Source of the DNA: Amphiscolops sp. MND2022
Taxonomy: Eukaryota
Assembly (NCBI GenBank): GCA_964187785.1
Contig: OZ076409.1
Location: 53,632,001-53,696,000 of the forward strand
Direction of reading: 5' to 3'
Length of the DNA: 64,000 bases
Positions 27,901-30,900 of this stretch are shown here, in pieces. Within the stretch, counting starts at the first letter, position 1, and every line of letters starts with the position of its first letter. The position numbers were made by a program, and so were the translations under genes. The notes under the pieces were generated by a model. The model was not told where the DNA came from, did not search any database, and saw only the letters and a list, made by a program, of their open reading frames with translations.

Positions 27901-30900
27901 CGACAATTTGGAGTTGCTGAATGGTTCTGTCCTGTTGTCTTCGTAGGTTCTTTTCATGCTCAAGTTGCTCGAAGAGGTTTGCAACTTGTAATTGTGTTGC
28001 GTGTAGGTATTGAGCATGTTTAAGATTGCTGAGAGGGAACTTGTTAACGAGCATTTTCATCTGGGTAAGGTCGTCGTTGGTGCATGTAGGTTGGCTGAGA
28101 TTTGTTATTTGATTTTGTAGTGTTGTAATTTCATTTTCCATGGCGGCTAATCTAAGGTTGAGTTCTTCCAATAATTGTTTTTTCATTTTGTTTTCAAATG
28201 AAAGCAGAGATAGCCCGAAGGGGTACTGATAGTCTCTGGTTTTTAAGAACGGTGTTTTCAATAGTAAATTCTTGTCTTTTTGAGTCCCAGAAAATAATTC
28301 TCCACTGATTGACTTCTTCTTTGAGAGTATAGTTGAGGTTATAATGAAATCTGGGATTTCTGGTTATCGAGTATTTTTGAGCAGCTTCTTCGCTTCTTTT
28401 TTGCTTTTCTAAAGCTTGTTTCAATGAGTATTGTGTTTTCTTCTTTTTGATACTACCGTTGAAGATAAAAGTATTAGGGTGATTTGGAGGAGTAATAGTA
28501 CCTTCTAAGAGAGTTTGATTAAGTGGTTGTTGAGGGATAGGAGATTCAGCTGAGGTGATATCAAACATAGGAAAATCAAGTATGTCCTTCTCTGTTAGAG
28601 TGTCTTTTGAAAGAAGAAGTTCCAGATCTGATGAAAGAGAGGTGTGGTCGGTCATTTCTTGCTAAAAATAGAATACAAAAGTTAAATTGGTGATATTGTG
28701 TCTAAACGATTAGTTACTGGCAGACGATTTATGACGGGGTAGATGTGTTCAGAAGCATCTTGATTGTCGGTACTGAATGTTGTCATGGGAATATCTTTTG
28801 TAGTAGGATTGAACATTGAATGGAAGATCGAAACCATAAAAAGATTATAAGTTGCTGATAGTAGAATTTTACCAAATCCAACAGATGCTCCAGTAAGTCG
28901 GTGTATTTCAAAGGCTCTGACAATAGTTACTGTCACATCAATAATTAGTTTTATAAAAAGGAAAACTGCAAACCAAATACCACATTTTTCTAGCCAATAT
29001 CCAATTGTGCCAAATGTTTGTCTAAATTTGCTTTCGAAGTAACCAGGAGATATCATGTTATCAACAAAGAAGTCCATTTTGGGTGCGTAGTATGTATATC
29101 CTTCAGGTCCTTTCTTTGATTGTGAAGGAACAATGAGTTTTCTTGTGAATTTTTGTAAAGCATTCTTCGATGCAGAACTCATGAGGATGTTGTCCCAAAA
29201 TTCAGTTAGTTGGCCTTTCGTGTACATTCCAGCGTTGATTGATTGAGGAAACTGATCCCTTGTGAACGGTGCCACATCTTTTGGAGAGAAAATAGCAGGT
29301 CTATCTCTATGTGTGATTTGTGGTGTTAGTGAAAACCAAGAGTTCTTGTCGTCCATATCCATTTGAAAAAGGTTTTTAATTTGATCCGAACAGTTCTGAG
29401 GCATCGCATCAGGTAAAGTTTGCCTCGTGATGGGATCTACAAATTTGATTTGTCCTTTGTAAAATATGGGTATCTTATCGTAGCACTCGTTCATCGTGTG
29501 TAGAGGTGATCTGACTAGTGGACAAGAATAAAGCCATGCAAGGCTTCCATCAGTTTCTAAGAACATTGATCTGTTTCCAGTCAACATATATCCAGCTAGT
29601 CTTGAGTTCTCAAGTGAAAGCATCAGAATGGTGAGTATGTGCGATCTTTCTTGTTCACACTGGTTTTTTAAAAGGTGAAGTTCTGAGGCTTTGAGTGCTC
29701 TGGAGCTCTCAAAGAAAAGGTAGTCCAGTTTAGTTCCTTGTTGTAATTCGTAGTCCATATTCAACCATGTTCCATAATATGGGTCTGAATGGTAGTTACT
29801 AGCAACCCAGAGTTTACTATGGCCTGGGTCATCTCTTTCTTGATCATTAGGGGAATAGCGCATCATGTGAACTCTGTCCTCTTGTTGGATCATATTTCGT
29901 CCAGTTTTCATGTCAAATCCACCATAAAGGATAGCAACAAACAAAGATTCATAGGTTGTAGGATATACATCTGATGGTTTATTACAAAGTTTTTGTGGTC
30001 TGTTTTTGACTTCAAAGAGATATTTGTTTTCTGAATCGTTCTTGCTAACAATATAGTATTGATCGTCATTTTTGATCATATTTACGTACTCCTCTTTCAG
30101 TACGGTGAGAATACAATTGTCTGGATTATCCCATACATAAGCATATGGGTCAAGAGAAGTGCTGTCACATCCCAGTTCGTCTAGCTTGCAGGGTAGAGGT
30201 TGTCCATTTCTATTCATTATAGTCCCGTCTCTGAGTTTGACGTTCAGAGTAATATCTTGGATGTGAGTTTCAAAAGTGTCTTTTTCAATCCATTCAAAAC
30301 CATCACATTCATTTTTGAATGTGTCGTCTGCATCGCCATTCCATCTAAGATGTTGTTCAATTACTCCTTTTTTCATTATAATCTGATGATTTAGTAGAGT
30401 TATTGGTGATCCTTCAGCTGCGAGTCTGCATTGTGCAGGCGATAAATCGAGATATGAGGTAATAGTCTTTTGTTTGATATCAATACTGGAGTGGTCGTGC
30501 ATTCCACAATAGAATCTGTTCCTTTGATGTTTGACACTGCATATTGTAGCGTTGATCTCTGTTCGAAAATGCTTTGTGTACATCTTGACTTTGGCGTGGC
30601 TCATGTCTATGTTCTCAGGAGCCACGTTACAAGGTTTGACTTGGTTAAGAGAGTAGAGATTGTTTTCTGACATTTCACTGCAATCGTAATGTGAGACTGT
30701 GACTGTAGGTGCGATATCATCCAGTATGGGCTGCTTCTTGTCGGCGTAGATGAGATTTATTGAAAGCATCAAAATGAAAATAACAAAATATTTACAGTAT
30801 ATCTTTTCACTATCCATTATCAACTAATGAAAACGGTACTCCGAAAATACTATAATGGGTTTAGGAATAGAAAGGTAGACTTGCTAACCTTGAGATGAAG

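Follow-up and report, generated by a model that had tools for sequence, protein, structure and literature searches.

The 64,000-nt stretch of Amphiscolops sp. MND2022 DNA analysed here (hereafter the window; contig OZ076409.1, positions 53,632,001 to 53,696,000) contains a 19,249-nt Ty3/gypsy element (24965-44213) with an LTR-PBS-gag-pol-env layout, whose env gene is predicted to encode a class III (gB/chuvirus-G-like) fusogen and not an F-type Env. We consider it probable that this element is a young, intact and unusually complex gB-type errantivirus, in which env likely mediates the entry of particles into other cells of the same animal. The combination of a chuvirus-like glycoprotein with a gypsy pol is an already described pairing; the novelty of the element is its accessory cargo. 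All genes and sites of the element are encoded on the minus strand, and positions are those of the window.

The env reading frame is open from stop to stop at 28682-30823, with a first ATG at 30817 and a product of 711 amino acids (28682-30817). A Pfam search at E ≤ 1 identified a single family, PF24664 (Monjiviricetes_fusion; E = 1.1e-39), with a score of 136 bits where the cut-off is 27. At E ≤ 1e-3, 221 database matches were found, and another search gave 1,329 representatives. Given the score and the number of relatives, we conclude that the ORF is more than a chance open frame. A previous sequence-only reading had described an intact env-like gene with a signal peptide, a YDC motif, a Cys-rich ectodomain and a C-terminal transmembrane segment (TM), all of which were found. 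The leader (residues 1-25) has a hydropathy peak at residues ~5-26 (KD19 maximum 1.89), residues 3-25 are predicted to be helical, and the signal peptide is probably cleaved near A25/D26. The YDC motif occupies residues 44-46, followed by domains I/II (~60-310), a central helix (360-413), a beta domain (426-504) and the TM (~612-636, KD19 maximum 2.27), beyond which lies a tail with a YPVI motif. The protein has four N-glycosylation sequons and 16 cysteines, of which the ectodomain (46-476) holds 14. Conservation was assessed in two alignments of 54 (A1) and 71 (A2) relatives, hand-picked for coverage and diversity from 120 and 150 listed matches. Among aligned relatives that span the column in question, each of the 14 ectodomain cysteines is conserved in 89 to 98% (for example, C104 in 46/48 and C210 in 54/55), and a YPxΦ motif is present in 32 of 38 aligned tails. 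The earlier reading had also seen no RxxR-fusion-peptide junction, in agreement with the absence of RxxR and R-x-K/R-R motifs from the whole protein and of R-x-K/R-R from the aligned ectodomains (0/55).

To assign the protein to a fusogen class, we compared predicted structures, all of them monomers, with known and modelled folds. The full-length model was mediocre (pLDDT 64.7, pTM 0.35), with TM-scores of ~0.2 and a VIA Z of 6.9 at most; low global TM-scores are expected here because the domain orientation is uncertain. The top nine Foldseek rows against viral models were, where named, glycoproteins of chu-, xinmo- and related negative-strand viruses (E = 1.7e-28 to 7.7e-24), and all 38 rows listed against the PDB were herpes gB (best E = 8e-12). 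A phmmer search of PDB sequences returned no match at E ≤ 10. In the ESM Atlas the best env clusters were again PF24664 (0.97), with the Atlas "recognition" value under its reliability mark. Residues 40-350 folded alone reached a pLDDT of 83.8 and TM-scores of up to 0.53 against chuvirus-like G; the match to HSV gB (Z 8.4, rmsd 9.8, 226 residues aligned) has a Z barely above the background of the tool. Lower-ranked matches of this segment included CMV gB, rabies and Chandipura G, thogotovirus GP and GP64, along with PH domains, which represent background. The gB-like matches cover domains I/II and the crown domain (5ys2: Z 6.5, rmsd 4.8, 151 aligned). No F-type or class I protein was among the listed fold-search rows, an absence that by itself does not exclude such a fold, and neither F-type hallmark sought in env (a hydrophobic fusion peptide behind a furin site; an F-family profile) was found. 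Eighteen longer or more distant relatives likewise matched PF24664 only, with no fusion to other domains. The suggestion of the sequence-only reading that this is a chuvirus-G-like, class III Env distinct from the F type thus holds, on the basis of the PF24664 match and the Foldseek matches to chu-/xinmovirus G and herpes gB. A best structural match to baculovirus F, a class I Env or a host protein would have spoken for another class; the best matches were chu-/xinmovirus G and herpes gB.

The surrounding element is of the gypsy type, as had also been proposed from the sequence: the domains of pol are gypsy-like, and the best PDB matches of RT/RNase H are Ty3 (E = 6e-35). The 5′ LTR (42028-44213) is 2,186 nt long with TG...CA ends and an internal 87-nt tandem repeat, and the 3′ LTR (24965-27150) is identical to it at 2,186/2,186 nt; copies of a GTAC target-site duplication lie at 24961-24964 and 44214-44217. 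The identity of the LTRs suggests a very recent insertion, the alternative being homogenisation during assembly. In both LTRs the 87-nt repeat comprises about five units (26058-26581 and 43121-43644). A PBS-like sequence beginning with TGG is located 3 nt past the LTR (42008-42024); a search for its primer tRNA gave no matching row. The polypurine tract (27151-27165) is broken by CCC and ends in GGGTGAGA, as does a purine-rich tract (near 12150) in the related element L004 described below. Gag (421 amino acids, 40391-41656) was recognised by Retrotrans_gag (E = 4.6e-5). Pol (1,819 amino acids from its first ATG, 34884-40343; frame open from 40445) is in the -1 frame, and a T-TTA-AAC slippery heptamer stands just ahead of the gag stop (40397-40403), where Gag-Pol is presumably produced by -1 frameshifting, by analogy with Drosophila errantiviruses. 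Its domains follow the order protease (DTGA), macrodomain, RT (YLDD), RNase H and integrase (HHCC, DDE core, p58_C/SH3), with the motifs intact and Pfam matches to RT_RNaseH_2, Integrase_H2C2, p58_C and SH3_Tf2-1. At the thresholds used, gag and pol matched no Pao-type Pfam family, which we take to be represented by Peptidase_A17 and DUF1758/1759/5641. Between pol and env is a spacer of 4,066 nt that holds small ORFs and a hairpin array.

This setting bears on whether env belongs to the element at all. That it is a host-domesticated or non-viral glycoprotein lying there by chance seems very improbable: the only point in favour is the lack of a PDB sequence match, against which stand its position between identical LTRs, its membership of a large sequence cluster (290 members, below) and its matches to viral fusogens only.

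The element lies in sense orientation within an intron of RBM26/27 (20784-45535, minus strand; 24,752 nt, GT...AG, phase 0), where it is nested in LINE-like remnants. Animal RBM26/27 proteins match the exons on both sides of the intron in order, with 68 of the 120 listed matching the downstream exon and with the splice junction in phase; local identity to the flanking exon is 24 to 58% among the best 120 of 132 matches. The sense orientation is found despite AATAAA signals in the LTRs. Elsewhere in the window, exons on the minus strand at 15401-17314 resemble the 28-kDa heat- and acid-stable phosphoprotein, which we take to be PDAP1. A LINE-like element on the plus strand (50499-54125) has a PHD-like ORF1, an endonuclease and an RT in broken frames, as judged from the translations. 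At 59364-61157 a tandem array of 15-nt units leads into a large, imperfect inverted repeat, and a dispersed repeat family of ~75 to 210 nt that looks MITE/foldback-like occurs at 49012, 50136, 55696 and 61113.

To place env among its relatives, we compared it with database sequences and with other elements. Unnamed relatives range from 24 to 98% identity among the matches listed, whereas named chu- and xinmoviruses reach 11 to 18% in the top structural alignments; at that distance neither a donor nor a direction of transfer can be named. At 90% identity env falls in a cluster of 290 members, several of them full length at 96 to 99%, which, together with a 104-member cluster of relatives of the TRAF-like ORF described below, points to many copies, with the caveat that the counts may pool assemblies. 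Of the 391 candidate stretches in a metagenome scan, 5 were confirmed, as was none of 208 pattern matches in viral_contigs. In a tree of 46 rows (quick method; no named viruses, the searches having returned no named chuvirus G sequences), the window protein falls in a 14-row clade with 100% support.

The most informative relative for the history of the locus is L004, a second gypsy element with gag, pol and env (gag 41% identical; pol 36 to 57% by segment, with the RT/RNase H region at 56%; env 42%). It shares the first 12 bases of the PBS and carries two orfX homologues after its env, and an interruption breaks its pol frame near 5204-5246. In L004 at ~12160-13166, the polypurine tract leads into an LTR-like stretch, beyond which come a PBS and more leader-like sequence, an arrangement that would fit tandem copies, a circle with one LTR or wrap-around in the assembly. 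In a further element, L002, env is also followed by an orfX homologue. Because env, PBS and downstream ORF are all shared with L004, whose env and pol have both diverged, the env-pol pairing predates the split between the two elements. Synonymous sites in comparisons of env with L001, L003, L004 and L002 are saturated (pS 0.76 to 0.81) with pN at 0.19 to 0.39, and env has therefore been under purifying selection over a long time. Together, these comparisons suggest that the pairing is most likely old and inherited within an old element lineage rather than freshly captured.

The sequence-only reading had instead favoured an independent capture of a chuvirus-G-like fusogen by a Gypsy lineage; taken as a recent event, this would mean a chuvirus or xinmovirus G acquired by the lineage of the window element. 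Several observations are compatible with such an event: among named structures, chu-/xinmovirus G match best and outrank herpes gB by a wide margin (E = 1e-28 versus 1.6e-13, BFVD); the Pfam family is the Monjiviricetes one; and Pao elements captured chuvirus G in mosquitoes, according to the available part of PMC7642597. We nevertheless judge a recent capture unlikely. The named viruses, at about 18% or less, are far more distant than the unnamed relatives; L004, the deepest relative with full context, is also a gypsy element carrying the same env at 42% (pol 56 to 57%); no virus relative was confirmed among the 208 pattern matches in viral_contigs; and gB-type env in gypsy elements has been argued to be ancient (PMC13524379). 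Nor is the pairing itself new, as the earlier reading had implied, since the chuvirus-like glycoprotein of mosquito Bel/Pao elements has also been found beside gypsy pol in 114 elements (PMC13524379). The older, inherited pairing is the reading we retain below.

Directly after env lies orfX (153 amino acids, 28194-28655), which has no Pfam or Atlas match and, by inspection, no leader or TM. Weak homologues occur at 2541-3140 in L002 and, duplicated, at 9741-10757 and 11223-12095 in L004, so that the family, with an L-x-Y-[ST]-L...W core, directly follows env in each of the three elements whose downstream context is available. Its constant association with env is relevant to whether Env fuses membranes unaided, as are the fusion loops, assigned here only by inference from strand topology and secondary structure. 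The tip of the putative domain I fusion loop 1 is polar (C-G-M-H-D-H-S-S), relatives often have H or N at each of the two tip positions, and putative fusion loop 2 has W, F or Y in only 26 of 72 aligned rows. On this assignment the window env would differ from gB-type errantiviruses, since gB-type fusion loops are described as hydrophobic (PMC13524379). The polar loops and the linked orfX would fit a protein that is under selection without fusing by itself, either requiring a partner (orfX or the small ORFs), as herpes gB needs other glycoproteins for entry (PMC13524379), or serving as a receptor blocker or adhesion protein while the element transposes intracellularly. We regard this alternative as quite unlikely. 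The domain I hairpins, central helix, TM and tail motif are kept in relatives down to ~37% identity, insect gB-type envs with a single fusion loop have been described (PMC13524379), and orfX, by inspection, has neither leader nor TM. A fusogenic Env remains the preferred reading.

The remaining coding capacity of the element comprises domains and ORFs foreign to a minimal gag-pol-env layout. Within Pol, between protease and RT, sequence homology identifies a TARG1/OARD1-type macrodomain (residues ~290-417; 39093-39476). It matches human C6orf130/TARG1 at E = 2.3e-24, with TK and GCGLD aligned, and its K352 and D393 align with identical TARG1 residues, presumably the catalytic ones. The macrodomain is absent from L004 pol. 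Targeted literature searches found no example of a gypsy-borne TARG1 macrodomain, and the available portions of PMC4695847 and 10.1101/2021.11.30.470311 contain none. Directly before the 3′ LTR is a TRAF-like ORF of 325 amino acids (27209-28186), with a coiled coil and a TRAF-C/MATH domain (E = 1e-14 to TRAF5). It has no RING or zinc fingers and only one Cys in its first 150 residues. Its relatives form 28 clusters with about 240 member sequences at 74 to 97% local identity, the largest being the 104-member cluster mentioned above. From general TRAF architecture, a TRAF without a RING is expected to be dominant negative, and by analogy this product may act in that way. In the spacer, a 106-amino-acid ORF assigned to no family (32449-32769) is accompanied by a distant paralogue of 132 amino acids (31911-32309; phmmer E = 4e-7 in a four-sequence comparison) and by a broken, two-frame paralogue (32805-33123). 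No N or L gene was found among the ORFs of the element.

Upstream of env, the spacer also contains an array of ten hairpins (31094-31829), five of each of two types, and each opening with a AAGACACGG-like word. AAGASACGG occurs eight times in the window, against 0.61 expected, always within the array and on the sense strand of the element; a looser pattern of the word gives ten occurrences. Covariation supports the pairing, with compensatory double changes at four base pairs. In type A hairpins 55 of 60 cells are paired, the five misses representing one outer pair drawn too far, and there are two double changes common to two copies and one invariant U-G pair; in type B hairpins all 25 cells are paired, with two double changes. 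The folding z of the region is -3.3 (20 shuffles). As the copies are related and few, these data support the structure and not a function. A search of Rfam over the element found no family at E ≤ 1 and three chance-level matches at E ≤ 10. The hairpins were also considered as an NXF1-binding CTE with an AAGACA loop (PMC4174252), a weak candidate, since the ACA is base-paired here and the hexamer is altered in 4 of 10 copies. Each type A hairpin is followed by TATAAATAAC, which could alternatively be read as a TATA box belonging to an internal promoter repeated along the array, and the hairpin units are separated by pyrimidine tracts resembling splice acceptors.

How does this element compare with known systems? 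HSV/gB-type errantiviruses are widespread in Ty3/gypsy elements across animals (Chary and Hayashi, eLife 2026, PMC13524379), and the window element resembles them in its Ty3/gypsy gag-pol-env layout with LTRs and PBS, in a continuous pol ORF with full RT and integrase, and in an env with a leader, a gB-like ectodomain, conserved cysteines and a TM. They do not always keep a furin site, which is missing from the window env, and they are multi-copy, as the window element may also be, given its env cluster, whose count may pool assemblies. Unlike them, the element is 19.2 kb long and its pol-env spacer exceeds the gap filter of up to 1,000 nt applied to non-insect elements in that survey (PMC13524379). 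A macrodomain in Pol, a TRAF-like ORF, orfX, small ORFs and a hairpin array are likewise features not shared with gB-type errantiviruses as described in their main text, from which the terms "macro", "TRAF" and "accessory" are absent, although closer relatives may be present in the supplements and among the deposited baits. In the supplements, with long cells covered in part, six motifs from env, pol and PBS had no match, and acoel terms do not occur in the text or in seven supplementary files.

An earlier paper, in its available part, reported no clear gypsy capture of such a glycoprotein (PMC10084718). The Anakin Bel/Pao elements carry chuvirus G within their LTRs following capture in mosquitoes, as far as the available part of Dezordi et al. 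2020 (PMC7642597) describes them; they are thus also LTR retrotransposons with a chuvirus-like class III glycoprotein inside the LTRs, whereas the window pol is Ty3/gypsy rather than Pao and its env is far from named chuviruses. With the G proteins of Jingchuvirales and Mononegavirales (PF24664), env shares a family HMM score above cut-off and its best predicted-structure matches, and it differs from them in its low identity in the top rows, its carriage by a retroelement and the lack of an accompanying N or L gene. Giant gypsy elements of planarians, Burro/GYPSM1, carry MATH/TRAF-C (PMC6431247, available part). In Burro, according to that part of the source, gag, env and pol are joined in this order and in one frame within a polyprotein of ~5,000 amino acids with BIR, BCL2 and ankyrin domains; the window element, by contrast, has separate ORFs, with env placed after pol and the TRAF-like ORF after env. 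Macro domains occur in fish epsilon-like ERVs (PMC4977317, in its available part, citing Basta et al. 2009), which in this respect are similar retroelements. Those ERVs, as presented there, are retroviruses with additional ORFs, whereas the TARG1-type domain of the window element is fused inside a gypsy Pol.

By analogy with class III fusogens and with Drosophila errantiviruses, env would be expressed from a subgenomic or spliced RNA, and Env would enter the ER via its leader and become glycosylated. A sequence resembling a splice acceptor ends at 31007. It would form an uncleaved trimer, be sorted by the conserved YPxΦ tail motif and fuse membranes after uptake, possibly triggered by pH, the putative first fusion loop being His-rich. 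Spread from soma to germline would then make new copies of the element. The TARG1-like domain and the RING-less TRAF would be later additions, which may counter ADP-ribosylation and TRAF-dependent signalling. Infectivity of the element is plausible. The mechanism of cell entry by gB-type errantivirus envelopes is stated to be unknown (PMC13524379), and this copy is a good test case for it, because it is intact, apparently very young and has many env relatives.

The element also has implications for how such elements are sought, since a survey with an upper limit on the pol-env distance would overlook those organised like the one in the window. Its accessory cargo (TARG1-type macrodomain, RING-less TRAF and structured RNA array) suggests that, among invertebrate gypsy elements, some resemble complex retroviruses in their behaviour and act against ADP-ribosylation and TRAF signalling. 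More tentatively, we raise the possibility of a spreading "complex" errantivirus in an animal lineage outside the published survey, one that combines a class III fusogen with atypical, His-rich fusion loops, a TARG1-like de-ADP-ribosylase, a dominant-negative TRAF and a hairpin-regulated env. If true, it would be an invertebrate counterpart of the complex retroviruses with their accessory genes.
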